DNA from: Thermoplasmata archaeon
GTDB lineage: Archaea > Thermoplasmatota > Thermoplasmata > RBG-16-68-12 > JAGMCJ01
Reading direction: 5' to 3'
Assembly: GCA_046761045.1 (NCBI GenBank)
Contig: JBHIFJ010000003.1
Coordinates: forward strand, 4,835 to 68,834
Length of the DNA: 64,000 nucleotides
This document shows, one piece after another, positions 6,124 through 40,546 of this stretch. The stretch's first letter is position 1. Each line of letters starts with the position of its first letter. The notes beneath the pieces were generated by a model, which was not told the origin of the DNA, made no database searches, and worked only from the letters and a program-made list of their open reading frames with translations. The position numbers and the translations under genes were made by a program.

Positions 6124-7116
6124 CTAGTCCAAGTCGATATCGGAAAGCCTTGGTGCAGGAACAGACTCCTCTGCCTTGATCCTGGACTTTATCGCGAGTC
6201 TGACGGCACCCCGGATGTTTCCCGTCTGTTTCACTCTTACTGCTCTTCTCAGGAGATCGATAGCACCGGTCGTGTCCCCTCCCTTCTTCTCAACATGCGT
6301 AATCTTGGATTGCGCCCTTCTTACGGCGTCCTGAAATATCTTCATCTGCAGGACCGTGGTCTTTGCGATCTCGGCGCTGAGATTGGCGGCCCTGGTCGCC
6401 GAGAGGTAGTCGCCGCTCTCGTATGACTCCCTTGCGCTGATGAGGACGACCTCTGCTCGGGCAAGATCGGAAGGCACCTTGGACAGCTCCTCGTCGATTC
6501 TCGTCGACGCGCTCTCAATTGCCGCAACGGCGGATTCCCTAACACCTTCGTCACCGACCCATATGTTGGATCCGCAATCCGGGCATGTGCTCAACTCGGG
6601 GCCGACCTCTCTGTTGCACATCGGACAAAGGAACTCGGAGATGGACTTCCTCTCGGTCTCGAAGTCCAGCCATATCGCGGTTCCACAGCTTGAGCAACGG
6701 TCCTCCAGGAGGCTGACGACCACCCCGCAGACCGGACATCTGTAGTTGACATCCCTCTCTCTTTCCCTGTTGACGTAGTCGATTCCGCAATGAGGGCACT
6801 TGGTTGCATTTGGATCCACGATCTCATCGCAGAAGGGACATCTGAACTCGATTTCCTTTTCCTTGACCTCGATTCTGGGAGAACCACACATCTCACAGGC
6901 CTGGCCCTCAAGAGGACTCCCGCATACGAGACACATCGCCGTCGAATCCTCGGTCGGTGCGGGCAGCGGTTCCACGCCAACCTGTGTGTGCTGTCTATCC
7001 TTCTTGGGCTGGGCAGAGGGAGCTCCGCAGATGGGACACATCTCTTCGTCCCCATAGACAGCAGTGCAGATTCTGCAGACCCTCATCCTAGATGGCCGCA
7101 CGAACAATGCAGACAC
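6124..7116 (-). CDS. Protein with five tandem zinc ribbons and a C-terminal helical domain (function unknown)
   Basis: Five zinc ribbons are present: CRIC..CPIC, CLVC..CEMC, CPFC..CPHC, CPVC..CSSC and CPMC..CPDC. A helical tail of about 130 aa follows. The track start at 7116 is GTG, and ATG 7086 (MRVCRIC) is an alternative. Confidence 0.7.
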   Translation of the reverse strand: MSALFVRPSRMRVCRICTAVYGDEEMCPICGAPSAQPKKDRQHTQVGVEPLPAPTEDSTAMCLVCGSPLEGQACEMCGSPRIEVKEKEIEFRCPFCDEIVDPNATKCPHCGIDYVNRERERDVNYRCPVCGVVVSLLEDRCSSCGTAIWLDFETERKSISEFLCPMCNREVGPELSTCPDCGSNIWVGDEGVRESAVAAIESASTRIDEELSKVPSDLARAEVVLISARESYESGDYLSATRAANLSAEIAKTTVLQMKIFQDAVRRAQSKITHVEKKGGDTTGAIDLLRRAVRVKQTGNIRGAVRLAIKSRIKAEESVPAPRLSDIDLD

Positions 7117-7221
7117 TTCATTGATAGAAAAGCTTTTGGTGGCATTATCAGACCACGGAATCAGGTGGGTTGGACATCACTTTTCAGACACTGGGGAGGC
7201 AGCGCAACGATTTTATATGAT

Positions 7222-7250
7222 ACAAAAAAACGTACAAATGAGATTAAATA
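7222..7250 (+). promoter_or_regulatory. Shared operator-plus-TATA element, copy 1 (promoter of the membrane wHTH regulator)
   Basis: The sequence ACAAAAAAACGTACAAATGAGATTAAATA ends 25 nt before ATG 7275. Its spacing is identical to the copies at 8352 and 11383. Confidence 0.65.
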
Positions 7251-7274
7251 GTGGGACCAAGATAAAGAATACTG

Positions 7275-8273
7275 ATGGTGAGAGTGAGGTTCCTATCACT
7301 CGTTCTTCTTTCATCCTTTCTTGCATTTGGATTCATGATGGCGGGGGCTTCGGCCGGAGAAATGTTTGGTCAGGTTGCCGACATCGGCATGATTGACCAG
7401 ACACAGCTTTTCTTGCGCGTTCGCTCGGATTTCGACATCATTGACAGTGGAAGCGTCATCCCCATCTACGTGACTGTTGTCGATCAGCACGACGTTCCCG
7501 TACCTGGTGTGACAGTGAAGGTCTCTGTTGTGTCGCCCTCTGGGGAACGAGTTGACTCGTTGTACGTCACGGATTCCAATGGCGAGGTGACATTCGACTT
7601 CACAGCATCCACTCAAGGTCAGGATGAGTACGCAATCGAGTTCTTCGCGGAGAAGGTCAAATGCATACCCGATAACGACCGCCTATCAATGGTCGTCTTC
7701 GCGCCCTCTCCCCCCTTAAGCATCGAGGACGGAACGGAAGCGGTCTCCGTGGGGATAGGTGTTCTCGTCGCTGCCGCCTTTCTCAGCACGGAAGCTGGCT
7801 GGTACGCGATATTCAGAACGCTGATATTCCCGCTGTACACTAGACTCAGGAAGGAGGAGATACTCGATCACTTCGTTCGTGGGCAGATTTACGGTTTCAT
7901 AATGTCTCATCCAGGCGAGCACTACAATGCCATCAGAGGGTATCTGAAGGTCACGAATGGAACGCTCTCACATCACCTCAGGACATTGGAGATGCAGGGC
8001 TTCATAAAGTCACATCGAGATGGCGTCTTGAAGAGGTTCTATCCCGTTGACATGAGGATCCCACGGGATAAGGGCATAAAGCTCAGTGATCTTCAGATGG
8101 GTATGGTGGAGGTGATAAGGAGCTCCGATGGCGCCACGCAGGCTGACATCTGCAAGGAGCTCGGAGTGAGCCAGCAATGCGTGAGCTACAACCTCCGCAA
8201 CCTCAGTCGGGAGGGCGTTCTGAGGTTCGAGAGGGATGGAAGACTGAAGAGATATTATCTAGTAGACAACTGA
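7275..8273 (+). CDS. Membrane-tethered transcription regulator: signal peptide, Ig-like (Big_1-like) ectodomain, TM helix, two winged-helix HTH domains
   Basis: The domain order is as follows. An N-terminal hydrophobic signal (LSLVLLSSFLAFGFMMAGASA) is followed by an Ig-like block (IPIYVTVVDQHDVPVPGVTVKVSVVSPSGE..DSNGEVTFDF). A TM segment (VSVGIGVLVAAAFL) precedes two ArsR/MarR-like wHTH units (GEHYNAIRGYLKVTNGTLSHHLRTLEMQGFI and ATQADICKELGVSQQCVSYNLRNLSREGVL). Confidence 0.7.
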   Translation: MVRVRFLSLVLLSSFLAFGFMMAGASAGEMFGQVADIGMIDQTQLFLRVRSDFDIIDSGSVIPIYVTVVDQHDVPVPGVTVKVSVVSPSGERVDSLYVTDSNGEVTFDFTASTQGQDEYAIEFFAEKVKCIPDNDRLSMVVFAPSPPLSIEDGTEAVSVGIGVLVAAAFLSTEAGWYAIFRTLIFPLYTRLRKEEILDHFVRGQIYGFIMSHPGEHYNAIRGYLKVTNGTLSHHLRTLEMQGFIKSHRDGVLKRFYPVDMRIPRDKGIKLSDLQMGMVEVIRSSDGATQADICKELGVSQQCVSYNLRNLSREGVLRFERDGRLKRYYLVDN

Positions 8274-8351
8274 TGCAGGCAAGCGGGCCCGTGGGCAGTC
8301 GTTGGGGCCCACCTCGTAGGCACGAGGTGTACCAATAAGTTTAAATATTAT

Positions 8352-8380
8352 ACAAAACACCGTACAAATCTGCTTTTATA
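8352..8380 (+). promoter_or_regulatory. Shared operator-plus-TATA element, copy 2 (promoter of the ABC binding-protein gene)
   Basis: The sequence is ACAAAACACCGTACAAATCTGCTTTTATA. It lies about 108 nt upstream of ATG 8488, which is preceded by a GGAGGA Shine-Dalgarno-like site. Confidence 0.65.
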
Positions 8381-8487
8381 CGCTATTCGAAATTCGTTCT
8401 ACAGTTGGGTGCGGCTGCTTGTTGAGTAGACGCGCCGCGTAGGACGACAACCTAGAATTTGTGAGTAACCTGCATGCAGGAGGAAAA

Positions 8488-11319
8488 ATGATGAACGGGA
8501 AGAAACTAAGTGGAGTATCCGTCATCCTTTCTCTTGTTCTCGTGAGTGTGTTGGTCGTGGGATTGTTCCCGATCGGCGCACTCGCAGGAGAAGAGACAAG
8601 GGCGGAGAATATCTTGAGGGTGGGCGCCCAAGACGACACCAAGACCAGAAATATCTTCGGTGCAACAGATGTGTGGACATCGAATGTCTTGACGCCTGTG
8701 TATGAAGGTGTGGGTCAGGTAGACCCAGACACCGAGGACCCGATTCCCTATATCTTGAAAGGGATCGATGCCGATGACGATGGTGTATTAGATTTGGATG
8801 AGTACGGGGTCTACGGGAAAGAGACAGGAACTGAGGGCCGTGAGGTCACTGCCTACTATGATATGAACTGGGTGTACTCTCATGACGGCGTCCAGATGAC
8901 CATGGATGACCTGCTTTTCGGATACCACATAAACGCGCTGGATCCCCTCACGATATCCCTGGACGTTCTGAAGGACAAGAACAATCTCCCCGGGTCAAAC
9001 TACTCAACGAGCCGGTGGCTGAACGTTTGGCCGGTCCAGGGCAGCTGGGATCCTGCAATACCACTCGGACCCGACACTAGCCTGACATTCGCCCTTCATT
9101 TCTCGCAAACGGCAGACTACGCCAACTTCGTGAAGTACACGCTCAACGGTGCAACGGTAATGCCAAGACATGTCTGGGAGGGAACGGGCAAGATCTGTTT
9201 GGAGGCCACCAATGGTGTCTGCACCTCTTGGAAGGAGAACATTCACGCGGACTTCGGCTATGCATACGATCCAGTGACGCACAATGGCGTCCCTGCCGCG
9301 GCGCAGAACTCTTTTTCATACAGTGCCGCCGAGGAGTGGTTGCCAAGCGATGATGAGGTCATTGGAACTGGAGCATTCGAGTTCGACATCTGGAATCCCG
9401 GTGTGTCTGCCTTGCTCAACAGGTTCGAGGACTACTTCGGCGATGCCCTTGCCTGTACCAAGGACCCTGTGTCAGGGAAGTGCGCTGGCGAGTTCTACAA
9501 GTACATGCACAAACCCTACATCGAGGGGATGCTGTTCAAGATCTACAAGACGGCACAGGCAGCCGTCTTTGCGCTTCAGGCGGGAGAGATTGACGTTGTC
9601 TCCTGGTCCGTTCCTCCTGAGTTCGTCGGTGGACTGTTGGTCGACCCGAACATAGGAATCTTCAACACCGCCGAGAAGGGTTTCTTCTATCTTAGCTACA
9701 ACATGAGGATGTCTCCATTCGGCTATCCCAACAATGATCCGTCGCTGGGTGACGATGGTTTGTACCTGAGGAAGGCAATGGCCCATGTCATCGACAAGAA
9801 GACGATCGTGACGACGCTGCTGCAGAACTTCGGCGTTGCCGGAGACCAGCCGGTTAGTCCCGCCTTCACAACATTCTACAACGGCTCGGTTCAGAAGTAT
9901 GATTTCGAGCTGGATGCCGCAAGGCAACTTCTGGATGACCACTATACGGTTGGCGGACTCAGTCTCGGCTACGGACCCAACGGATACAGGAACCTTCCGA
10001 CCATAGGAGACCGCCCTGTCGACATACTGTGTCCGCAGGCAGACTACGATCCGATCAGGGCATCAGCATGCAACATGATCGCGGCAAACGCGAGGGACGT
10101 TGGACTGAACTTCCACGCAAAGCTCCTCGCATTCGGAGAGATCGTGACCAGACTCGACAATCGCGACATGGAGATGTGGGTCCTAGGGTGGAGAATCGGC
10201 TCAGATCCTCCAGACTACTATCACGCCTTCTTCTATTCTGGCAATGCACCTGCGGGGCAGAACTATGAGGGATTCCAGAACGAGACCTTTGATAATCTGA
10301 TTACCGCCGCTCGGGCAACGCTAGACGCAGACGAGCAGGCTGAACTGATTAAGGAGTGCAGCGGAATCCTCATGGATGCCGTGCCCTACGATGTCCTCTA
10401 CTTCAGAACGAACATCGAGGCCTACAGGTCGGATAGGTACGACAATTGGACCGTCGGACCCGCCGGATCCATTTTCGGAGGGTCCTTCTGGTCCAGGATA
10501 GGAATCCATGCGCCCTCTCCGGACGCATTGACGATTTCACCGCCAGTGATGAAATCCGATGTTGCATCAGGTTCGACCGAGGACGTTGCGGCCACGGTGA
10601 GGGATCCTGACGGCAATGTGGTGGCAGGCGCTCCCGTTCAGATGACACTGAGCGGTTCCGGGGCCCTCGGCAACCTGAGCATTCCTGGTGGAGAAACCGG
10701 AACTACCGTCAATGGCGTGACGAACATCAACGGGAAGTTGGTCGCGAAGTACCTCGCACCCACGGTGGCGAACGAGACAGAAGTGTTTGTATCCGCGCAG
10801 GCACTAGAGTTTGGGGAATATCCCGCCTCAACTGTGCAGTTCTCCCGAGTGGATGTTCATCCCCCAGGCACCCAATTCCTATCGGTACTGGTGGAACCGA
10901 CCTTCTTCGCTATTGAAGAGGGCGGTACGATGACAATCGAGGTGACGGTTACCGACCAGGCCGGCGTGGCTGTGGATGGAGCGCTTGTCAATCTGGTGAC
11001 GATTCCGTCAGGACCAACGCTCGCTCCAGACTCCGGAACAACGATAGTTGGATCAATCGGTACGATTGTCTTCACTGCGCCTGAGTCACTTCCGGAAGGC
11101 CTGGAGGAGCAGCTGTACACACTGACGGTCACCGCCAACCTGACCGGATACCTCCCAGCCGAAGACTCGAAGGATATCACTATCCTAGCTCCGACTTTGG
11201 CTGGAGGAGGCGGCGGTTCCAGAACGGAAGTTCCGGCGCTCGATGTCGTCGCGACCGTGGCGGTCATCGCGCTCGTGACCGTGAGCCTTGCTGTATACCG
11301 TGGAACGAAGAGAAGGTAA
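8488..11319 (+). CDS. ABC transporter substrate-binding protein, family 5 (Opp/Dpp type), with C-terminal Ig-like domains and a TM anchor
   Basis: The start is set at ATG 8488 after GGAGGA (the track start 8461 is GTG). A signal-anchor precedes a family-5 SBP core (YKTAQAAVFALQAGEIDV, FFYLSYNMR, LRKAMAHVIDK, GWRIGSDPPDYY). Two Big_1-like repeats, a Gly-rich linker, a TM helix and a KRR tail follow. Confidence 0.85.
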   Translation: MMNGKKLSGVSVILSLVLVSVLVVGLFPIGALAGEETRAENILRVGAQDDTKTRNIFGATDVWTSNVLTPVYEGVGQVDPDTEDPIPYILKGIDADDDGVLDLDEYGVYGKETGTEGREVTAYYDMNWVYSHDGVQMTMDDLLFGYHINALDPLTISLDVLKDKNNLPGSNYSTSRWLNVWPVQGSWDPAIPLGPDTSLTFALHFSQTADYANFVKYTLNGATVMPRHVWEGTGKICLEATNGVCTSWKENIHADFGYAYDPVTHNGVPAAAQNSFSYSAAEEWLPSDDEVIGTGAFEFDIWNPGVSALLNRFEDYFGDALACTKDPVSGKCAGEFYKYMHKPYIEGMLFKIYKTAQAAVFALQAGEIDVVSWSVPPEFVGGLLVDPNIGIFNTAEKGFFYLSYNMRMSPFGYPNNDPSLGDDGLYLRKAMAHVIDKKTIVTTLLQNFGVAGDQPVSPAFTTFYNGSVQKYDFELDAARQLLDDHYTVGGLSLGYGPNGYRNLPTIGDRPVDILCPQADYDPIRASACNMIAANARDVGLNFHAKLLAFGEIVTRLDNRDMEMWVLGWRIGSDPPDYYHAFFYSGNAPAGQNYEGFQNETFDNLITAARATLDADEQAELIKECSGILMDAVPYDVLYFRTNIEAYRSDRYDNWTVGPAGSIFGGSFWSRIGIHAPSPDALTISPPVMKSDVASGSTEDVAATVRDPDGNVVAGAPVQMTLSGSGALGNLSIPGGETGTTVNGVTNINGKLVAKYLAPTVANETEVFVSAQALEFGEYPASTVQFSRVDVHPPGTQFLSVLVEPTFFAIEEGGTMTIEVTVTDQAGVAVDGALVNLVTIPSGPTLAPDSGTTIVGSIGTIVFTAPESLPEGLEEQLYTLTVTANLTGYLPAEDSKDITILAPTLAGGGGGSRTEVPALDVVATVAVIALVTVSLAVYRGTKRR
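9448..9627 (+). repeat. Near-identical 180-nt tract shared with the paralogous SBP gene (copy A)
   Basis: Hand alignment to the reverse complement of 33554..33733 gives 6 mismatches in 180 nt. A run of 93 nt (9535..9627) is identical. Confidence 0.85.
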
Positions 11320-11337
11320 ACCCTTCTCACCCTTCCC

Positions 11338-11346
11338 TTTATTTTT
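11338..11346 (+). terminator. Oligo-T tract after the binding-protein gene (candidate archaeal terminator)
   Basis: The tract TTTATTTTT lies 19 nt after the TAA stop at 11317-11319. It is directly upstream of the internal promoter copy 3. Confidence 0.35.
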
Positions 11347-11382
11347 GGGCCCCGCGACGAGCCATTCGTGAGCCCACTGGCT

Positions 11383-11411
11383 ACAAAATCCCGTACAAAT
11401 GACGTTAAATA
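11383..11411 (+). promoter_or_regulatory. Shared operator-plus-TATA element, copy 3 (internal promoter for the permease and ATPase genes)
   Basis: The sequence ACAAAATCCCGTACAAATGACGTTAAATA ends 33 nt before ATG 11445. Confidence 0.65.
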
Positions 11412-11444: not shown

Positions 11445-13157
11445 ATGAGACTGAGAAGCTTCCTCATCAGGAGGGCCTTACACACAGTCATCACGCTTGT
11501 TGTCATCCTGGTCCTCCTGTTCATAATCTTCAGAATGATGCCCGGGGATCCGACGAGATTCTTCATTGAACCGGGACAGCCACCGGACGTCAGGGACCGG
11601 CTTCTTGTCGATTTTGGATTCTCCAAGTGGACGACCGCTCCCGGAGTCTATCGTGTGGCCTCCTTCGAGGCCTTCGATGATGGTGCATACGGGATCAGGG
11701 TGGAAGTCAATGCCACAGGCGTCATCGAACCCCCTGAGTTCCACAATGAAACCCTTTACTCTTCATACGTGAGGGCGAAGCGATACTTCCCGAGCGAGGA
11801 TCCCTTGGTGATTTGGAATGTAACGTTCTCCGAGGCTCCCACGGGCAACATCACCGTGGGCCAGACCTTTAACGTTACTTTCGATGTGAAGTCACCGGAG
11901 GGAATGACAAGGATAGTCTCAATTGACCTGGTTAGAAACGATGACCCCAACCAGACGGTGACGCTCAACCTCACAGGGTCAGGTGCTCAGATTGGCGCGA
12001 GCGGTCAGTGGGGGAGATACACCACGACAATGAGCGCCACTCAGCCTGGGTTCTATAGAATGACCCTGTCCGTCCATGATTCCACGCTCGGTCTCACAGA
12101 AGAAGCGGAGTACGGCTACGCGGTCAATCCAAGCGACATTCATCCCTTTCAGCTCGTTGTTGGTGAGGGCAACATTTTCACCTCACGCAATGTGTTCGCG
12201 GAATCGATCGGGGAGCTGACCCTCGCCGTCAAGGTGGAGGTCGAAGGCAAGCTCGTACCCATCGACGACTCTGGCTTGGTGGGATATGTCACCTCTCCGA
12301 CGGGAGAGGTCTCCACGCTCCAGCCCCCTGATCAGCTGATACACCCTCAGATAGTGGTTCCGCTTCCAGTGTGGGAGCAATTCTGGGAGTACTTCACTTC
12401 CATGATAACAGGTGATTTCGGGATTTCCTTCTTCTCCAAGCGACCTGTTTGGGTTGAGATTGCCCAAAGGGCGCCCGCCACAATCCTCCTCTTCGGGACC
12501 GCACTTGCTCTTTCTGCCCTTATCGGCATCGGCATCGGAGCGATACTGGCGTGGCGGCGGGGAACAAGCCTGGAGATGTCAGCCATCGTTGTCAGCCTGT
12601 TCTTCTACTCCATGCCACTGTTCTGGTTTGGATTGATTCTGCTCTGGGCATTCGGCTTCAGGCTTCAGTGGTTCCCATTGGGCGGGATAGGCGGTGTGGA
12701 CGAAGCCGGAAGGCCACTTGAAGGCCTTGCCTATATCGCCGACATCTTGTGGCACATGACACTTCCCCTGGTCACGCTTATGATGGTCAATCTGGCGGGA
12801 TACGTCCTCCTCATGCGAAACTCGATGCTTGAAGTTCTCGGAGAGGACTATGTCACAACCGCAAAGGCCAAGGGCCTGAGCGAGAGGACCGTGATGTACA
12901 AGCATGCGGCAAGGAACGCGCTTCTGCCCGTTGCCACGGTCATCGCCCTTGGCGTGGGTGGCGTCATCAGTGGTGGCGTTCTCACGGAGACGATATTCTC
13001 CTGGCCCGGAATGGGCTACTTCCTTGTAACCTCCACGATACAGCAGGACTACCCAGCGGTTCAGGGTACATTCTTCCTCCTGGCAATAATGACTGTGCTG
13101 GCGAACGTGGCTGCAGACGTGCTGTATGCCTACCTTGATCCAAGGGTGAGGTTGTAG
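11445..13157 (+). CDS. ABC permease, OppB/DppB type, with an extracytoplasmic insertion of about 245 aa
   Basis: The start MRLRSFLIRRALHTVITLVV is a typical OppB N-terminus (the track start 11424 is TTG). Conserved GDFGISF and EDYVTTAKAKGL (EAA-loop) blocks are present. A beta-rich, sequon-rich insert separates TM1 from the GDFG block. Confidence 0.85.
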   Translation: MRLRSFLIRRALHTVITLVVILVLLFIIFRMMPGDPTRFFIEPGQPPDVRDRLLVDFGFSKWTTAPGVYRVASFEAFDDGAYGIRVEVNATGVIEPPEFHNETLYSSYVRAKRYFPSEDPLVIWNVTFSEAPTGNITVGQTFNVTFDVKSPEGMTRIVSIDLVRNDDPNQTVTLNLTGSGAQIGASGQWGRYTTTMSATQPGFYRMTLSVHDSTLGLTEEAEYGYAVNPSDIHPFQLVVGEGNIFTSRNVFAESIGELTLAVKVEVEGKLVPIDDSGLVGYVTSPTGEVSTLQPPDQLIHPQIVVPLPVWEQFWEYFTSMITGDFGISFFSKRPVWVEIAQRAPATILLFGTALALSALIGIGIGAILAWRRGTSLEMSAIVVSLFFYSMPLFWFGLILLWAFGFRLQWFPLGGIGGVDEAGRPLEGLAYIADILWHMTLPLVTLMMVNLAGYVLLMRNSMLEVLGEDYVTTAKAKGLSERTVMYKHAARNALLPVATVIALGVGGVISGGVLTETIFSWPGMGYFLVTSTIQQDYPAVQGTFFLLAIMTVLANVAADVLYAYLDPRVRL

Positions 13158-13158
13158 C

Positions 13159-16100
13159 ATGGTGTCCAAGCAGAGACTTTATGAGAGGTTTCGAAGCTAC
13201 TACAAGGCCTTCAAGCAGAACTGGGATCTCTTCAAGGCGAGCAGGATTGGCCTTGTTGGTCTTGGAATCCTCGTGTTCTTCTTGGTGATAGCTCTAATCA
13301 CGCCGGCCCTGAATCTTCGCGATCCCATAAACTGGAGAGCCCCCGAAGAGGATCTGATTAGGGTCGACCAGTACTGGTACGTTGACACATCAACGGTGCT
13401 GTTCAAGGCTGGAGACCCCATCAACACATCCATTGCCTTCAGGCTCATACCAAAGGAACTAGACCCCTCTTCGGATCGAATCTATTTCGCCTCCGGAGAT
13501 AAGGTCATTGCCCTGCGCCCGTCAACAGGACAGTCCGTTTGGTATGTCGGCAGCGAGTCCGATAAGGTTTGCTGTTTCCAAGCCGATTCCACGGTGACCG
13601 CGGGGCCGGTCGTGGTCAACTACGGTTCGGTCGACAGCCCGGAGTTCGCAGACTGGGTCCTGTATTTCGGAACTGAGAGCGGGGAGTTCTACCAGCTGAA
13701 TGAGGCTGGAACCCTCGAGATCGACCTGACGAGACGATCCTCACACATACCAACGGGGGAGGATGTCTTCACGGCCACGCTCGATAGCACCGTAACGGGT
13801 ATTGCCGTTTTCGCGGACGAGACATCCAATCGAAGGGCATATGAGAGGGTTTTCGTCGGGACCGAGGAGGGGAAGGTGTATGCCTTTTCCAGCATTTGGA
13901 AGGACGACGAGACCTGGTTCTACAATGTCAGCTCCAACCAATGGATGAGAGCATATCCGCAGGAACGTCCCTTCCCTCAAGACCGGCACGTCATGGCATA
14001 CAGTCCAGAGTCAAAGAAGGTCCTCCTCGTCAGCGGAGACAACGGTGTTGGGTCTCAGAGCGCGGACCTGGTCCAGACGTGGATATTCAACCTCACCAGT
14101 AAGGAGTGGACTGAGTTGGACAACCTCTCGAGTGCGCCCCCTTACAGGCGAGAGAGCGCAATGGCCTACGTTCCAAGCTGGAATTCCGCACTGATGTACG
14201 GTGGGAAGCAGAAGACCTCAATACTGGATGATATGTGGCAGTTCAACTTCACTACTGAGAGATGGAATCAGGTGAACTATAGCGGCGCCCCCGATTGGAG
14301 AAGCGGGCACTCGATGGCATACAGCAGCGGTGACAACGCAGTCTACATGTTCGGGGGAAGAGTTACGGACCTTAACAAGACGTTGAAGCTGAACCTCACA
14401 AGTCTTACGTGGTCTGATGTGCCGACTAACTCAAGCGCAATCGCCCGGATGGGCACATCCATGATATATGATGCTGCGAAGAACAGACTCATCATATTCG
14501 GTGGCGAAGAGTACGTTGAGGACAACGATAACAATCAGACCAAACTCTTGAACCTCTCCTCAGGTCAGTGGGGATACATCGAGAGCCCTCAGGACCTGAC
14601 CCCGAGGGCATGGCAGTCCCTCGCCTATGACAGTGTCACGAACACTGCAATTCTCTTTGGCGGTCTCGGCACGAACCCCGAGCGAATACAGGAAACGTGG
14701 CAGTTGAACCTCACGACCGACAACTGGACTCAACTGAACACAACCCTCATGCCCTCTGCACGTCACGGTTCCTCAACGGTCTTCTTGGACAGCTCGGAGA
14801 TGTTCCTCTTCGGGGGAGATGACTATCAACCCAGCGAGCTTTGGAACATGACAGCGCCTCGAGGACCAATCGTGATGGCGGATCTTCCCTTGATGATCAA
14901 GAATTCTCCCATGTTCTCACCCGCCGTTGCCTACTCCTCGGGCGGGAGCTATTCTGGTGAATACCTTGTCTTCAATGCTGGAGGATATCTGGCCAATGTC
15001 TTCACAAGGAACGGGTCATATGTATGGACCGATGAGGCCGCTCACGGATACATCTTGAACGGCACAATACTGATAGGAGACGATTGGTCTACGGCGCCGA
15101 TAATCTCCCAGCCAGAAGGCTCTATTCCTCCCCTGATATTCCTGGGGACCAGCAACGGTTTCATACACGCATTCTATCCCGAGGACGGAGGGGTCTACGA
15201 ACCTTGGGTCACGATCCCTCCTGGAGAGGAGTTCCCGGACGGAAAGCAGAACCAGAACAACTCCATAATCGGGATACAGGTCGCGAGGACCATCCTGGAC
15301 ATAGATGGGGGCGTTCTGACAAGGCCAGAGCCGTATGGCTCATACGTTTACGTGGGCTCGAGCACGGGCACCTTCTATGCCATCCAAAGGGACAGAATCA
15401 GGGAGCTGCCCGCGGGCAGGGCGCGCGGAATCTTTGAGGTACCTGTGCAACCAAGGGAGCAGTTCGTGTTCAACACACCCCCCTACTATCTCGTCGGGTC
15501 AAGTATCGTTCTCATTGCTGGATACAATGACAACGGAACCGCGAACGACTGGACCGATGACAGGAGCACGATATATTCCTTCAACACAGATGGCACTGTC
15601 TCATGGAAGCAGACATTTGATGCACGGATTAATGGCGCACTCAATGTGTGGAGGGACGAGCCTGGTTCCCGCCATCTCCACAAGAGCGTCTTTGCCGGAA
15701 TGACCGACGGAACGATTCAGGTCTATTCATCAAGCGGTGAGTACCTCGCTCCATTGCCGCCCACGTGGATGTCCTCCGTCCCAAGCGGAAACACGTATTG
15801 GCTCGGCACGGACAACCAGGGGAGGGACCTGTACAGTCAATGGATGTGGGGCACCCGTGTGGCTTTGACGGTCGGGCTGTTGGCGGCTTTCTTCTCCATT
15901 TCCATTGGCACGATCATAGGGCTGGTCTCTGGATATACCGGGGGCAAGGTCGACTCCGTTTTGATGAGATTCACGGACGTGATACTTGTCCTTCCAGGTC
16001 TCCCGCTCGTCATCATCCTGGCCGCTGTCCTCGGTGCCGGGATATGGAACATCATTCTGGTCATAACAATAGTGGGTTGGCCGGGAACAGCCAGAGTCAT

Positions 16101-16467
16101 AAGGTCCGAGGTTCTCTCTTTGAAGGAAAGGCCGTTCATCGACTCAGCGAGAGTAACGGGGGCAAGTAACATCAGGATAATGTTCAAACACATTGCCCCA
16201 AACGTCCTCCCGCTCGCCTTCCTCTACATGACGTTCGCCGTGAGCGGTGCGATTCTCACCGAGGCGGCACTGAGCTTCATCGGCCTAGGGGATGTGAACA
16301 CACCCAGCTGGGGACAGATGTTGATGTTCATCCAACAGTCCAACGTCCTGGGTTCCTGGTGGTGGCTTCTCCCGCCGGGTCTGGGCATCACATTCCTCTC
16401 GCTCGCGTTCTATCTAATCGGCAGAGGATATGAGCAAATAGTCAATCCACGTCTGAGGCAGAGGTGA
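13159..16467 (+). CDS. ABC permease, OppC/DppC type, carrying an ectodomain of about 830 aa built from nested beta-propeller repeats
   Basis: The 1102-aa product has an N-terminal TM helix. The canonical OppC core appears only from about residue 870 (YWLGTDNQGRDLYSQWMWGTRVAL ... PFIDSARVTGAS ...). Between the two lie six Kelch-like blades flanked by PQQ/BamB-like blades. Confidence 0.85.
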   Translation: MVSKQRLYERFRSYYKAFKQNWDLFKASRIGLVGLGILVFFLVIALITPALNLRDPINWRAPEEDLIRVDQYWYVDTSTVLFKAGDPINTSIAFRLIPKELDPSSDRIYFASGDKVIALRPSTGQSVWYVGSESDKVCCFQADSTVTAGPVVVNYGSVDSPEFADWVLYFGTESGEFYQLNEAGTLEIDLTRRSSHIPTGEDVFTATLDSTVTGIAVFADETSNRRAYERVFVGTEEGKVYAFSSIWKDDETWFYNVSSNQWMRAYPQERPFPQDRHVMAYSPESKKVLLVSGDNGVGSQSADLVQTWIFNLTSKEWTELDNLSSAPPYRRESAMAYVPSWNSALMYGGKQKTSILDDMWQFNFTTERWNQVNYSGAPDWRSGHSMAYSSGDNAVYMFGGRVTDLNKTLKLNLTSLTWSDVPTNSSAIARMGTSMIYDAAKNRLIIFGGEEYVEDNDNNQTKLLNLSSGQWGYIESPQDLTPRAWQSLAYDSVTNTAILFGGLGTNPERIQETWQLNLTTDNWTQLNTTLMPSARHGSSTVFLDSSEMFLFGGDDYQPSELWNMTAPRGPIVMADLPLMIKNSPMFSPAVAYSSGGSYSGEYLVFNAGGYLANVFTRNGSYVWTDEAAHGYILNGTILIGDDWSTAPIISQPEGSIPPLIFLGTSNGFIHAFYPEDGGVYEPWVTIPPGEEFPDGKQNQNNSIIGIQVARTILDIDGGVLTRPEPYGSYVYVGSSTGTFYAIQRDRIRELPAGRARGIFEVPVQPREQFVFNTPPYYLVGSSIVLIAGYNDNGTANDWTDDRSTIYSFNTDGTVSWKQTFDARINGALNVWRDEPGSRHLHKSVFAGMTDGTIQVYSSSGEYLAPLPPTWMSSVPSGNTYWLGTDNQGRDLYSQWMWGTRVALTVGLLAAFFSISIGTIIGLVSGYTGGKVDSVLMRFTDVILVLPGLPLVIILAAVLGAGIWNIILVITIVGWPGTARVIRSEVLSLKERPFIDSARVTGASNIRIMFKHIAPNVLPLAFLYMTFAVSGAILTEAALSFIGLGDVNTPSWGQMLMFIQQSNVLGSWWWLLPPGLGITFLSLAFYLIGRGYEQIVNPRLRQR

Positions 16468-16477
16468 TCCGGTGGCG

Positions 16478-17743
16478 ATGCTAGAAGTGAACAATCTCAA
16501 AACCTACTTCAGAATATTGAAGGGGACCGTGTACGCTGTTGACGGTGTCACGTTCCATCTCGATCGCGGTGAAACCATGGGCCTCGTGGGAGAATCTGGA
16601 TGCGGGAAGACAACGACCGCGTTTGCCATCACGAGGCTCCTTCCGTCCAACGGTAGAATCGTTGGAGGCGAGATCATCTTCGATGGCACTCTCATTGGTC
16701 GGGCCGACTTCCCCACCGAGCTCGCGGAGGTCCTGAAGGAACCACTGTGGCTCGAGGAGACCAAGGCACTCGTTGAAAGAAAGATGAACAGGCTCGCCAT
16801 CTCAGAGGGGGATCCCTCAACTGTGATGGAGTCAAGGATGCTGCTGGAGCAGGAGAGGGCATGTGTCGAGGAGGTCAATGCCATCCTCAACGATGCCAGC
16901 CTCTCAAAGGAGGAAATGAAGGGAGAGCTCGAGGACCTCGTTGATGGAGAACTCAATAGCTTCCTGGCAAGGCGGCGGAGGAGGCGAATCGAGCGGGAAA
17001 TCGAGGAGAAGATGATGGATATCAGGTGGAGCAAGATATCGATGATCTTCCAGGGAGCCATGAACGCCTTCAATCCGGTCTACAAGGTCGGTGATCAGAT
17101 CGTGGAGGCCCTGCTACGCCACGAGGACATGACGAAGGATGAGGCAAAGGAGAGGGTCCTTGAGCTGTTCGACCTCGTGGGTCTCGACCGCTCGCGAGTC
17201 ACAGGCTATCCGCACGAGTTCAGCGGCGGCATGAGGCAGAGGGCTATCATTGCCATGTCGCTTGCCTGCAACCCGCAGCTCATAATAGCCGACGAGCCAA
17301 CGACCGCGCTCGACGTCATCATGCAGGACAGAATACTCGGGGAGATCAGAGACCTTCAGAAAGAGTTCCACATTGCTATGATGATAATCACACACGACAT
17401 CTCGGTCGTCGCAGAGGTTTCTGAGACGATAGGAATCATGTATGCGGGGAAGCTCTTCGAGTTCGGCGACATAGTCTCCATCTTCGAGAGGTCTGCGAAC
17501 CCCTATACCATCGGGCTGACGGGGGCCTTCCCCAGCATCAAGGGCGAGCGAAAGAGGCTGATATCCATCCCCGGCTCCCCGCCGGACCTCTCAGCGCCAC
17601 CGCACGGATGCAGATTCCATCCCAGATGCAAATTCGCACAGGACATATGCAGGAAGGAGGAACCCAAGAGCGTCGAAGTGGCTAAGAACCACTGGTCCAT
17701 GTGCCATTTCGCCAGGGAGATATATTCGGGCCAACTCGCCTGA
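16478..17743 (+). CDS. ABC ATPase, OppD type, with a helical insertion of about 95 aa
   Basis: The Walker A motif (GESGCGKT), signature (FSGGMRQR), Walker B (LIIADEPTTALD) and the oligopeptide C-terminal Cys/His motif (HGCRFHPRC..C) are all present. A charged insert lies between IIFDG and ISMIFQG. Confidence 0.85.
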   Translation: MLEVNNLKTYFRILKGTVYAVDGVTFHLDRGETMGLVGESGCGKTTTAFAITRLLPSNGRIVGGEIIFDGTLIGRADFPTELAEVLKEPLWLEETKALVERKMNRLAISEGDPSTVMESRMLLEQERACVEEVNAILNDASLSKEEMKGELEDLVDGELNSFLARRRRRRIEREIEEKMMDIRWSKISMIFQGAMNAFNPVYKVGDQIVEALLRHEDMTKDEAKERVLELFDLVGLDRSRVTGYPHEFSGGMRQRAIIAMSLACNPQLIIADEPTTALDVIMQDRILGEIRDLQKEFHIAMMIITHDISVVAEVSETIGIMYAGKLFEFGDIVSIFERSANPYTIGLTGAFPSIKGERKRLISIPGSPPDLSAPPHGCRFHPRCKFAQDICRKEEPKSVEVAKNHWSMCHFAREIYSGQLA

Positions 17744-17752
17744 GGTGATAAG

Positions 17753-18958
17753 TTGGAAGCGTCAGAGGAAGCAGTTGCCGCGGAAATGGATGAGGACGTT
17801 GTCTATAGGGTCACGAATCTCAAGAAGCACTTCCCGATAAAGTCGGGATTCCTTGCCTCACTCTTTGGAAGGGAGAAGGTCGTTCACGCTGTGAATGGAG
17901 TTGATTTCTCGATCGGTGAAGGCGAGATTCTAGGGATGGTTGGCGAGTCCGGTTGCGGCAAGACAACATGCGGACGTCTCCTCGTCAGACTCGAGACGCC
18001 CACAGAGGGCCACATGTACTTCACCGGCAAGGACATCGCCGCGCTCAAGGGAAGGGAGCTGAAGGTGTTTCGCAGGGATGTCCAGATGGTCTTCCAGGAC
18101 CCATACGAATCGCTGAATCCGAGATTGACAGTCTTCGCAACCGTTGCGGAGCCCCTGGTCGTTCATGGTGTGGGAGAGTCCTCGGATGAGAGGGTGGACA
18201 TGGTGGCAAAGGCGCTCCAGTATGCGGAGCTGAAACCGCCTGAGGAGTTCATGTACAGGTATCCTCACGAGTTGAGCGGGGGGCAGAGGCAGAGGGTCGC
18301 GATTGCAAGAACCCTCGTGCTCCGGCCGAAGTTCATTGTGGCGGATGAGCCCGTGAGCATGCTCGACGTTTCCATCCGGGCTGGAATAATGAATCTCATG
18401 CTGAGCCTGAGAGAGCAGTACAAGATCCCGTTCCTCTTCATATCCCACGATGTGTCCGTGACCAGATATATGAGCCATAGAATCGCTGTCATGTATCTCG
18501 GGTTCATAGTGGAGCTCGGCTCATCGGAGGATGTCATCAAGGACCCGATGCATCCGTATACGGAGGCTCTGCTGTCGGCGGTTCCCGTTCCGGATCCAAA
18601 GGCCAAGCACGGAAGGGTGAAGATTAGGGGGGATCTTCCCAGCCCCATAGACCTCCCGCCCGGGTGCGTGTTCCATCCCAGATGCCTGTACCGTAAGGAC
18701 ATATGCGACAAGGAGCTGCCGCAGTTCAAGGAGGTGAGGCCTGGTCACTTCGCCCTGTGCCATTTCGCTGGGGAGCTTCCGATTAAGAGGCCTGATGACG
18801 AGGAGGTATTCGAGGAAGGTGTCTGCGACCTCTGCAAGGCCACAATCAAGAAGGGAATGCCGTTCGCGCGTTGCGACTGCAACAAGCTGTACCACGAATC
18901 TTGCGCCGGACAGCTCGGCGAATGCCCCGTGTGCAAGAAGGGTCTCCAGGTGGAGTGA
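17753..18958 (+). CDS. ABC ATPase, OppF type, fused to a C-terminal C4HC3 zinc finger
   Basis: The Walker A motif (GESGCGKT), signature (LSGGQRQR), Walker B (FIVADEPVSMLD) and PGCVFHPRC..C are present. The tail is C-x2-C-x12-C-x-C-x4-H-x2-C-x6-C-x2-C. The start is uncertain (TTG 17753 or ATG 17786). Confidence 0.85.
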   Translation: MEASEEAVAAEMDEDVVYRVTNLKKHFPIKSGFLASLFGREKVVHAVNGVDFSIGEGEILGMVGESGCGKTTCGRLLVRLETPTEGHMYFTGKDIAALKGRELKVFRRDVQMVFQDPYESLNPRLTVFATVAEPLVVHGVGESSDERVDMVAKALQYAELKPPEEFMYRYPHELSGGQRQRVAIARTLVLRPKFIVADEPVSMLDVSIRAGIMNLMLSLREQYKIPFLFISHDVSVTRYMSHRIAVMYLGFIVELGSSEDVIKDPMHPYTEALLSAVPVPDPKAKHGRVKIRGDLPSPIDLPPGCVFHPRCLYRKDICDKELPQFKEVRPGHFALCHFAGELPIKRPDDEEVFEEGVCDLCKATIKKGMPFARCDCNKLYHESCAGQLGECPVCKKGLQVE

Positions 18959-20125: not shown

Positions 20126-20198
20126 GGGCCTGTGGTCTAGTGGTTATGACGTCACCCTTACAAGGTGGAGGTCGGCGGTTCAAATCCGCCCAGGCCCA
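20126..20198 (+). tRNA. tRNA-Val (anticodon UAC)
   Basis: The sequence GGGCCTG/CAGGCCC forms a 7-bp acceptor stem. The anticodon stem is TCACC/GGTGG with loop CTTACAA, the T-arm is GGCGG-TTCAAAT-CCGCC, and the discriminator is A. There is no encoded CCA. Confidence 0.9.
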
Positions 20199-34736: not shown

Positions 34737-34766
34737 GTTTATAAGAAATTTGGTATATCTTTTTGT
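34737..34766 (-). promoter_or_regulatory. Degenerate fourth copy of the shared operator-plus-TATA element
   Basis: The reverse strand reads ACAAAAAGATATACCAAATTTCTTATAAAC. The architecture is the same, but the second half-site carries a 1-nt insertion (TACCAAAT). Confidence 0.45.
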
Positions 34767-34889
34767 ATCACCGCTTCCATGCCAGAGCGACATTCCGTGT
34801 TCCAATTTGCCAAATAGCAGTGACCATGGGGGTTTTCTGTACAGATTCTCAACCTTGAACACCAAAGCCAGACACGGTGCTTGAGGTAG

Positions 34890-40473: not shown

Positions 40474-40546
40474 GGGCTCATGGTCTAGCGGTTATGACGT
40501 CTCTCTCACACGGAGAAGGTCGCCGGTTCGAATCCGGCTGAGCCCA
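40474..40546 (+). tRNA. tRNA-Val (anticodon CAC)
   Basis: The acceptor stem is GGGCTCA/TGAGCCC. The anticodon stem is TCTCT/GGAGA with loop CTCACAC, the T-arm is GCCGG-TTCGAAT-CCGGC, and the discriminator is A. Confidence 0.9.

Follow-up and report, generated by a model that had tools for sequence, protein, structure and literature searches.

A conserved direct-repeat element that very probably controls peptide-importer genes and their regulator in uncultured Thermoplasmata

Genes of the locus

The window, a 64-kb stretch of DNA from a Thermoplasmata archaeon, carries on its plus strand a regulator gene, here called REG (7275-8273), followed by a peptide-importer locus. The next gene (8488-11319) encodes an Opp/Dpp-type SBP (SBP_bac_5; Pfam, NCBIfam) with a C-terminal Ig-like stalk and anchor. 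It is followed by oppB (11445-13157), oppC (13159-16467), which contains a Kelch propeller insert, oppD (16472-17743) and oppF (17753-18958), all on the plus strand and assigned from Pfam matches. The order REG-SBP-OppB-OppC is syntenic in about 30 loci. A paralogous gene, SBP2, lies on the minus strand (31862-34705/34726); its product is 62% identical to SBP.

REG has a predicted layout of signal peptide, extracellular Ig-like domain, a single TM helix and two cytoplasmic wHTH domains (Pfam, AlphaFold model, Foldseek). Its Pfam matches are Big_1, the HVO_0163_N HTH and MarR_2/HTH_5/HTH_20. The AlphaFold model has a pLDDT of 83.5 and a pTM of 0.35; at this pTM the model is no guide to how the two wHTH domains are oriented to each other. 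Foldseek matches the ectodomain to macroglobulin/CARDB-like Ig folds and the model also to the tandem winged helices of TFIIIC and Pol III subunits, in both cases as domain-level analogues only. A PDB sequence search with REG returned only weak ArsR/MarR matches. REG has 212 uncharacterised homologues; invariant residues concentrate in both recognition helices. Literature searches on HVO_0163, archaeal transmembrane regulators and the regulation of archaeal oligopeptide transporters returned nothing on the motif described below or on the protein.

Copies of the repeat in the window

The initial annotation described three gapless 29-nt copies of a promoter element in this locus. They stand at 7221, 8351 and 11382 with the pattern TACAAAA-N3-CGTACAAAT-N4-TTWWATA; all are intergenic and on the plus strand, and they front REG, SBP and oppB, as had been assigned. 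With three mismatches allowed, the full pattern has three matches in the 64 kb versus none in 100 shuffles. The exact 9-mer CGTACAAAT is found at those three sites only on both strands of the 64 kb, and at all three it lies 4 nt before a TATA box (TTAAATA or TTTTATA), which agrees with the gap first reported. The proposed 12-nt internal period is also real: a repeat search recovers the family together with its own 12-nt-shifted self-match. The same search identifies the sites as direct repeats, without palindromic symmetry.

The shorter form TACMAA-N6-TACMAA has exactly four matches in the window versus none in shuffles; these are the three main sites and 34750-34767 on the minus strand. The latter is part of a degenerate fourth site before SBP2 (TACAAAA-N5-TACCAAA-N4-TTATAAA, 34738-34767, minus strand), in which the TTATAAA box is at the identical offset. 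With a PWM trained on sites chosen by pattern, the main sites score 41 bits (7221), 44 bits (8351, the best in the window) and 40 bits (11382), while the degenerate fourth copy of the initial annotation, at 18 bits versus 40-44, ranks next in the 64 kb. At the scan threshold of 8 bits, the only further match in the window is one of 8.4 bits, in which the 11382 site overlaps itself with a shift of 12 nt. Distal modules (see below) and several lineages normally have the TACCAA variant; the general form across loci is TAC(A/C)AA-N6-TAC(A/C)AA, ending 4 nt 5' of a TATA box.

The copies do not behave as a mobile repeat, as the repeat search found them confined to promoters. Rfam at its gathering threshold identified two tRNAs only in the whole window and no RNA family at the repeat.

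Promoter architecture

In the REG promoter, the putative operator occupies 7221-7239 on the plus strand (TACAAAA at 7221-7227, CGTACAAAT at 7231-7239), with a TAC-to-TAC spacing of 12 bp. It is preceded by a TATA-like box, TATA1 (TTTTATAT, 7211-7218), and followed by TATA2 (TTAAATA, 7244-7250), which ends 24 nt 5' of the ATG at 7275. The distance from TATA end to start codon is mostly 20-25 nt in REG orthologues; this fits a leaderless promoter, in which the operator would lie at about -36 to -55.

The SBP promoter contains a proximal operator of the same form (TACAAAA-N3-CGTACAAAT, 8351-8369), which was found by pattern and PWM and has orthologous sites elsewhere, and a TATA2 box (TTTTATA, 8374-8380). 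In SBP promoters the module is present twice, the additional distal copy lying 33 bp upstream with a TATA-like box of its own. In the window this distal module spans 8329-8347 on the plus strand, with GTACCAA at 8329-8335 and TATA1 (TTTAAATA) at 8340-8347; in the repeat search, 8329-8350 matched the proximal half-site and its TATA box at 77-82%. The arrangement ACAAA-N5-GTACCAcAA-N3-TTATATA is kept in 32 SBP promoters. A GGTGCGG or GGGTGAAA block is likewise kept 25-27 nt 3' of TATA2 and likely marks the SBP mRNA start. The core of the element is as first described; its extent is larger, taking in the upstream TATA-like box and, at SBP, the distal module.

An oligo-T tract, TTTATTTTT, follows the SBP stop codon at 11338-11346 on the plus strand, 5' of the oppB site, where the initial annotation had placed it. 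Oligo-T tracts are established archaeal terminators. T5-T9 tracts are kept at this position behind SBP in close relatives, and the tract is a probable terminator. Beyond it lies the internal permease promoter (11382-11411, plus strand), found by pattern and PWM, with the operator at 11382-11400 and the TATA box at 11405-11411, ending 33 nt 5' of the oppB ATG. The sites thus share an intergenic position, a fixed offset to TATA and a TATA box correctly placed relative to the gene start, as expected of a core-promoter operator.

TATA1 was read directly from the sequence and falls outside all search patterns used. An A/T box at its offset is kept in most regulator and SBP promoters. The activator model discussed below does not account for the conserved TATA1. 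That TATA1 serves the divergent zinc-ribbon gene as its promoter was considered and rejected, because the box is equally kept at SBP promoters, whose upstream neighbour runs in the same direction.

Conservation in related Thermoplasmata

Conservation was examined in 80 REG-family loci (806 kb) gathered by protein homology alone. The site is found about 25 nt 5' of the REG start in 36 orthologous loci and before the next gene, SBP, in 33; four further REG-family loci have variants with the same architecture. REG orthologues with a site are 38-86% identical to REG of the window, and the TATA offset of the repeat is unchanged down to about 40% regulator identity. The repeat is kept at these orthologous promoters where the flanking DNA can no longer be aligned.

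Among the 80 loci, REG paralogues and homologues of 30-34% identity have no site at that position. The motif co-occurs with orthologous REG, and the two groups of regulators also differ in the recognition helix of wHTH2, which reads SQQxVSYNL in orthologues versus a PPTVNYH type in paralogues. The site before oppB has a narrower distribution, occurring only in close relatives (loci L002, L143-L145, L026 and L055).

In the genome collection, where the best match to the window is 86% identical, the exact pattern occurs in 38 stretches, of which Thermoplasmata-lineage MAGs account for 30. Genes 3' of these matches are REG, SBP or oppB and, in a few cases, genes for membrane or secreted proteins. 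A relaxed pattern (ACAAAN5RTACAAATN4TTWWATA) is unsuited to counting, since most of the matches listed are chance occurrences in AT-rich bacteria; the new Thermoplasmata among the matches listed again have the site before REG, SBP or oppB. A palindrome, ACAAATTTGT, present in many SBP promoters of the Methanomassiliicoccales type was considered and set aside, as it is not kept at REG or oppB promoters or in the window.

Specificity of the element

A motif that occurred at many unrelated promoters would be a general BRE/TATA flavour. This is not supported by the window, where about 25 other promoters have TATA boxes and neither GTACAAAT nor a TACMAA repeat, and where all four sites front REG, SBP, oppB or SBP2. 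In the 806 kb of related loci, matches of at least 20 bits lie at REG, SBP and oppB promoters with one exception, a tandem pair in locus L204 (27 and 23 bits). Within the 64 kb and the 806 kb, the element therefore marks a small, functionally coherent gene set; the exact-pattern scans of the collection complete the scope of this comparison.

The initial annotation had proposed a dedicated operator abutting the BRE, with autoregulation and separate control of SBP and permease. The specificity and conservation of the sites support this proposal. Since the repeat marks importer and regulator promoters in many uncultured Thermoplasmata, it very probably acts as a dedicated switch, not described before, in the regulation of peptide-importer genes and of their own regulator.

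Mode of action

The explanation we prefer, and hold tentatively, is that the repeat is a candidate operator for REG, which would positively control a small peptide-uptake regulon. The putative binder is the cytoplasmic tandem wHTH part of this type-I membrane protein, at about residues 180-332; either each wHTH would contact one half-site or two REG molecules would bind head to tail. The proximal half-site, YGTACAAAT, ends 4 nt 5' of TATA and would thus abut or overlap the BRE. Archaeal activators typically bind directly upstream of the BRE, as at the EarA sites and the ara-box described below (PMC5512572), and by this rule the position of the operator counts for activation. Membrane-bound archaeal activators also exist, namely ArnR and ArnR1 (PMC6396743).

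The regulon would comprise the leaderless gene of REG itself, between one and three genes for peptide SBPs and, with a weaker site, the orphan paralogous SBP gene. In this clade it would also include oppBCDF, under a promoter of its own behind the probable oligo-T terminator. REG would be positively autoregulated. Output would be graded by site number and quality: SBP has four half-sites, REG and oppB have two each, and the site of SBP2 is degenerate. The Ig-like ectodomain would sense a signal outside the cell.

Activation is favoured only slightly over repression. The TATA boxes come close to consensus and may make the promoters strong unaided, which fits repression equally; the proximal half-site lies over BRE positions -5 to -7, so a bound factor could instead compete with TFB. 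REG may thus act at the same operator as a repressor, an unlikely but serious alternative. It would occlude the BRE (and TATA1 at SBP and REG) and block TFB/TBP until an external signal or proteolysis of the membrane protein lifted repression, and its own gene would be negatively autoregulated. The overlap of the proximal half-site with BRE positions speaks for this, as does TATA1 of the SBP promoters, which lies between half-sites 2 and 3; TATA2 boxes such as TTTTTATA, TTAAATA and TTATATA should need no help. Known TrmB-family regulators of archaeal sugar ABC systems are repressors, a precedent for this mode. Repressors that overlap the promoter are also the commonest archaeal mode (PMC5512572). 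Against repression, the greater part of the site is upstream of the BRE rather than over the TATA box or the TSS, and sites graded in number and quality across promoters are more readily understood as graded activation. The bacterial membrane-tethered regulators ToxR and CadC are activators. The archaeal example retrieved, ArnR/ArnR1, is an activator as well (PMC6396743).

A more elaborate reading, which we consider improbable, is a transmembrane one-component circuit that senses through the transporter and acts on a twin-TATA promoter switch. The Ig-like ectodomain of REG, homologous to the membrane-proximal stalk domain of SBP, would read either the state of the transporter or of its peptide-binding protein, or extracellular proteolysis; what it reads would be relayed directly to DNA held at the membrane. 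With TATA modules 33 bp apart, the bound factor would close TATA1 and activate the downstream TATA2. If true, the protein-degrading Thermoplasmata of sediments would share a conserved device for sensing nutrients.

It is decidedly improbable that the repeat is a real operator of another factor encoded elsewhere, such as a global peptide or amino-acid regulator, with REG as a mere target. Some MAGs do have the motif before two small membrane proteins and a NosD-like secreted protein, which speaks for such a factor. However, REG adjoins a site in virtually every locus, the motif tracks orthologous REG with its specific wHTH2 helix and is absent near paralogues, and the two non-identical half-sites match two non-identical wHTH domains.

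A class-specific core-promoter element, that is, an extended BRE read by a TFB or TBP paralogue, would explain the fixed TATA offset and the 3' AAAT, which resembles the A-rich stretch 1-2 nt 5' of TATA at ordinary promoters of the window. The element nevertheless covers about 19 bp, with the second half-site 12 bp further up and far beyond a BRE of 6-7 bp; within the 64 kb and the 806 kb it is restricted to one small functional gene set, and it is duplicated as a distal module. This reading is accordingly very improbable. Functionless shared descent of duplicated promoter cassettes, spread with SBP duplication, is scarcely credible, and the conservation pattern comes near to refuting it already: SBP and SBP2 are paralogues and the distal module resembles a tandem duplication of the proximal one, but the motif fronts the non-homologous genes REG, SBP and oppB and is near-invariant where flanks are unalignable and proteins just 40% identical.

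Significance for uncultured Thermoplasmata

To our knowledge, transcription regulation in uncultured Thermoplasmata is essentially uncharted. The element and its putative binder provide a concrete, testable regulon, with an operator sequence, a candidate regulator of clear domain layout and peptide-uptake promoters in many MAGs. They offer a test case for how a membrane-tethered archaeal factor meets the BRE/TATA machinery, for how one polypeptide with two different wHTH domains reads a direct repeat, and for the uncoupling of peptide-SBP expression from permease expression. The motif could also serve in the annotation of peptide-uptake regulons from metagenomes. Among these uncultured lineages is 'Proteinoplasmatales' SG8-5, which one account implicates in catabolic protein degradation in marine sediments (PMC9123169).

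Comparison with known systems

TrmB of Thermococcales is a soluble sugar-binding repressor with a palindromic TGM operator. Like REG, it is encoded inside a binding-protein-dependent ABC locus; as proposed for REG, it controls the transporter and its own gene from a core-promoter operator. Unlike TrmB, REG is membrane-anchored, and the operator here is a direct repeat. REG scores 21.3 bits against the Pfam TrmB model, below the cut-off of 25.6, and has no sugar-binding domain, which places it outside this family.

ToxR and CadC are single-pass membrane proteins in which an extracytoplasmic domain is coupled directly to a wHTH that binds direct repeats, and their function is often tied to a transporter or co-sensor. 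REG shares the coupling of an extracytoplasmic domain to wHTH and the direct repeats beside the core promoter; Pfam, NCBIfam and PDB sequence searches detected no homology between them. ToxR has its DNA-binding domain at the N-terminus, uses an OmpR-type wHTH and acts at bacterial sigma-70 promoters; REG differs in all three respects, including its opposite topology.

ArnR and ArnR1 of Sulfolobus acidocaldarius act on surface-structure genes through boxes at -43 to -84, two of which are required for binding (PMC6396743). The boxes are inverted repeats, TCGAC-N5-GTCGA; ArnR lacks an ectodomain and combines an N-terminal HTH with a HAMP/sensor domain and two C-terminal TM helices (PMC6396743). 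These proteins resemble REG as membrane-anchored one-component regulators with boxes upstream of the BRE/TATA. REG is, in contrast, a type-I protein whose tandem wHTH is C-terminal and whose extracellular part is an Ig-like domain, and its putative sites are direct repeats; on this layout (Pfam, AlphaFold model) and these repeats (repeat search) it does not belong to the ArnR type.

The araS gene encodes an ABC sugar-binding protein and in this parallels the SBP promoter described here. In the Sulfolobus solfataricus arabinose promoter an ara-box lies directly upstream of the BRE, its factor being called unidentified, and the fla promoter of Methanococcus maripaludis carries four EarA sites of 6 bp beside a strong TATA box (PMC5512572). 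Both resemble the element in having short repeated or boxed sites directly 5' of the BRE/TATA of an inducible promoter. REG has no established homology to EarA; the HTH models recognised among its Pfam and NCBIfam matches are of the ArsR, MarR and HVO_0163 types only, and the likeness to EarA is one of site placement. The element described here differs from both in its sequence, its strict 12-bp spacing and its second TATA module, and in a putative factor that would be an autoregulated membrane protein with two wHTH domains.

Probable operator sites within the window

Three 29-nt copies of the promoter element (TACAAAA-N3-9-mer-N4-TATA) are read directly at 7222, 8352 and 11383 (7221, 8351 and 11382 counting the leading T), where the initial annotation had placed them. 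The pattern ACAAAA-N3-CGTACAAAT-N4-TTWWATA has exactly three matches in the window with up to three mismatches tolerated and none in shuffled sequence; the exact 9-mer is unique to the three sites across both strands of the 64 kb. The 12-nt direct repeat reported within the element is also recovered independently by a repeat search, which returns the family together with a 12-nt-shifted self-match.

The relaxed pattern TACMAA-N6-TACMAA yields four window matches, all intergenic (none in shuffles): the three sites and 34750-34767 (-). This proposed degenerate fourth copy is the next-best site of the window, since a position weight matrix (PWM) built from related, pattern-selected sites scores it at 18 bits (the three sites score 40-44 bits) and finds nothing further at an 8-bit threshold except the 11382 site overlapping itself at a 12-nt shift (8.4 bits). 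A TTATAAA box lies at equal offset, 32 nt 5' of the likely ATG of an orphan paralogue of the substrate-binding protein (SBP) gene, with 62% identity to the first SBP.

The element is not a general promoter flavour. Upstream regions were surveyed for every window gene having an intergenic gap; about 25 promoters have TATA-like boxes 25-35 nt 5' of the start codon, with short A-rich stretches 1-2 nt upstream of the boxes. Neither GTACAAAT nor a TACMAA repeat occurs in any of the approximately 25 other window promoters with such boxes, so the spread to many unrelated promoters that would have counted against a dedicated operator was not seen. The sequence evidence supports a dedicated operator, and a gene-specific operator of some factor is very likely. 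The element matches no Rfam family; the sole Rfam matches in the window are two tRNA genes (20126-20198 and 40474-40546).

Genes behind the sites

The window belongs to a Thermoplasmata archaeon: it carries genes for Nop56/58, aIF5A and aldehyde:ferredoxin oxidoreductase, and it is most closely related to Thermoplasmata MAGs. In the predicted layout of the regulator REG (7275-8273, +), a signal peptide and a Big_1/macroglobulin-like Ig domain are followed by one transmembrane helix and, on the cytoplasmic side, two wHTH domains, of which the first is of HVO_0163_N and the second of MarR/ArsR type; all 212 homologues carry generic annotations. SBP (8488-11319, +) is an Opp/Dpp-type family-5 protein with an Ig-like stalk. 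Its stop codon is followed by a TTTATTTTT tract (11338-11346, by direct reading), the third site and oppBCDF (11445-18958).

Both permeases are oversized: the OppC-like protein (13159-16467) has 1102 aa, about 600 of which form a Kelch beta-propeller insert, and the OppB-like protein (11445-13157) has 570 aa. Extracellular inserts this large are unusual for ABC permeases. Divergent from REG is a gene for a 330-aa double zinc-ribbon protein (6124-7116, -), which is kept upstream of REG in several lineages (32-72% identity).

Promoter architecture

The general operator is TAC(A/C)AA-N6-TAC(A/C)AA, the proximal half of which, YGTACAAAT, stops 4 nt short of TTWWATA. In REG promoters the TATA box mostly ends 20-25 nt before the start codon, which is the geometry of leaderless archaeal mRNAs with TATA centred near -26. 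On the transcription starts so predicted, the half-sites would lie at about -36 to -44 and -49 to -55. The overlap with BRE claimed for the operator thus holds for the proximal AAT (BRE positions -5 to -7); the distal half-site lies further upstream.

Two features go beyond the earlier description. One is TATA1 (7211-7218 and 8340-8347), a TATA-like box that precedes the distal half-site by 2-3 nt. Most REG and SBP promoters across lineages have kept it, although it was outside every search pattern; the oppB promoter lacks it. Its possible roles are those of a second promoter, a TBP decoy or a wing contact. SBP promoters also carry an entire second module, ACAAA-N5-GTACCAcAA-N3-TATA1; successive TACs are then 12, 21 and 12 bp apart, and the module period is 33 bp; the repeat search identifies 8329-8350 as a 77-82% copy of the proximal half-site and TATA box. 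The oppB promoter has the proximal module only, and its site is present only among the window's close relatives.

A conserved block 25-27 nt 3' of the TATA box in SBP promoters (GGTGCGG here, GGGTGAAA elsewhere) probably marks the mRNA start. Within the predicted SBP leader (8405-8437 and 8470-8484), CCGGTGCG...CGCGCCGG form a stem of 8 bp that is conserved, comparison of seven close relatives showing one or two compensatory pairs in it, and a CTGCATGCAG palindrome adjoins the GGAGG Shine-Dalgarno sequence; these may serve leader stability or translation.

Conservation in related genomes

In six of eight loci fetched by REG protein similarity alone, the exact 9-mer precedes both REG and SBP. 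Scanning GTDB, with each species represented by one genome, for exact matches to TACAAA-N4-YGTACAAAT-N4-WTWWATA returned 38 stretches, 30 of them in MAGs of Thermoplasmata, Methanomassiliicoccales or 'Proteinoplasmatales SG8-5', with one to four matches per MAG. Downstream are REG homologues (42-86% identity), family-5 SBP genes and oppB.

As an unbiased test, 80 REG-family loci (806 kb) were fetched by protein profile and then PWM-scanned. In 36 loci with a full-length REG orthologue a site ends about 25 nt 5' of the REG start, and in 33 loci a site directly follows REG, before SBP; additional strong matches occur upstream of SBP paralogues. REG-SBP-OppB-OppC synteny is kept in about 30 loci. 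Four high-GC orthologues without a match keep the architecture in variant letters (CTAAATA-N3-CACAA-N5-CTACCAAA-N4-CTAAATA), and further orthologues have GCACAAAT, ATACAAAT or GTACCAAA. Within this set, no site occurs at the equivalent position in paralogues matching the cytoplasmic part only or in 30-34% homologues.

In a few MAGs, operator and TATA box precede other genes (L010 2363, L040 1169, L027 4454 (-), L013 7279), encoding a small polytopic membrane protein that is conserved and without Pfam match, a NosD-like beta-helix secreted protein and a small membrane protein; these are possible extra regulon members. A look-alike, GTGATACAAAC..GTGTACAAATATCTTTTTATATTTC, is conserved in bacterial Labilibaculum and Marinifilum genomes (L018 5794, L024 7290 (-), L043 4796 (-), L031 1721 (-)) and probably represents a Bacteroidota promoter or operator with no relation to the element described here.

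Proposed regulation

Invariant residues are concentrated in both REG recognition helices. All family members share the wHTH1 helix, NGTLSHHLRTLE; the wHTH2 helix, SQQxVSYNL, is common to REG orthologues, and paralogues have PPTVNYH-type helices. The motif therefore goes with a single group of orthologous regulators and a single recognition helix. Because of this co-occurrence, and because two non-identical wHTH domains match two half-sites that also differ from each other and are spaced by one helical turn, REG is the likely factor that binds the operator. Several double-wHTH paralogues in Thermoplasmata MAGs (L180-L213, e.g. L183, L186, L187 and L204) match REG in the cytoplasmic wHTH part, have differing wHTH2 recognition helices and lack the TACAAA operator; each may have an operator of its own.

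REG would bind the operator and activate transcription, with positive autoregulation and an output graded by site number and quality. Activation is slightly favoured because of operator position: the typical binding place of archaeal activators is directly upstream of BRE, and repressors overlap the promoter or sit downstream (PMC5512572). Repression is a serious rival of nearly equal probability, since the TATA boxes are near-consensus and the operator overlaps BRE.

Comparison with known systems

Activator arrangements are found in EarA, with four 6-bp sites beside a strong TATA box, and in the ara-box of the S. solfataricus arabinose promoter (PMC5512572); ArnR and ArnR1 are membrane-bound archaeal activators with boxes at -43 to -84 (PMC6396743). 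By analogy, the operator here may work alike. REG is excluded from the ArnR group by topology and by ArnR's inverted repeats; it also falls below the TrmB family threshold, and the operator has no palindrome. Literature searches found nothing on the motif or on REG. Among bacteria, the ToxR/CadC systems are comparable, and REG and the operator might act in a similar manner.

In kind, the system would be an archaeal operator close to the promoter, paired with a local regulator that controls its own gene. Unusual traits are the membrane-tethered, ectodomain-bearing regulator with tandem wHTH domains and the duplicated operator-plus-TATA module. The REG ectodomain (Ig-like, aa 45-145) has weak homology to the last Ig-like stalk domain of SBP (aa 798-903; 29% identity, pairwise E 8e-5); this likeness hints at a shared surface-layer context or direct interaction.
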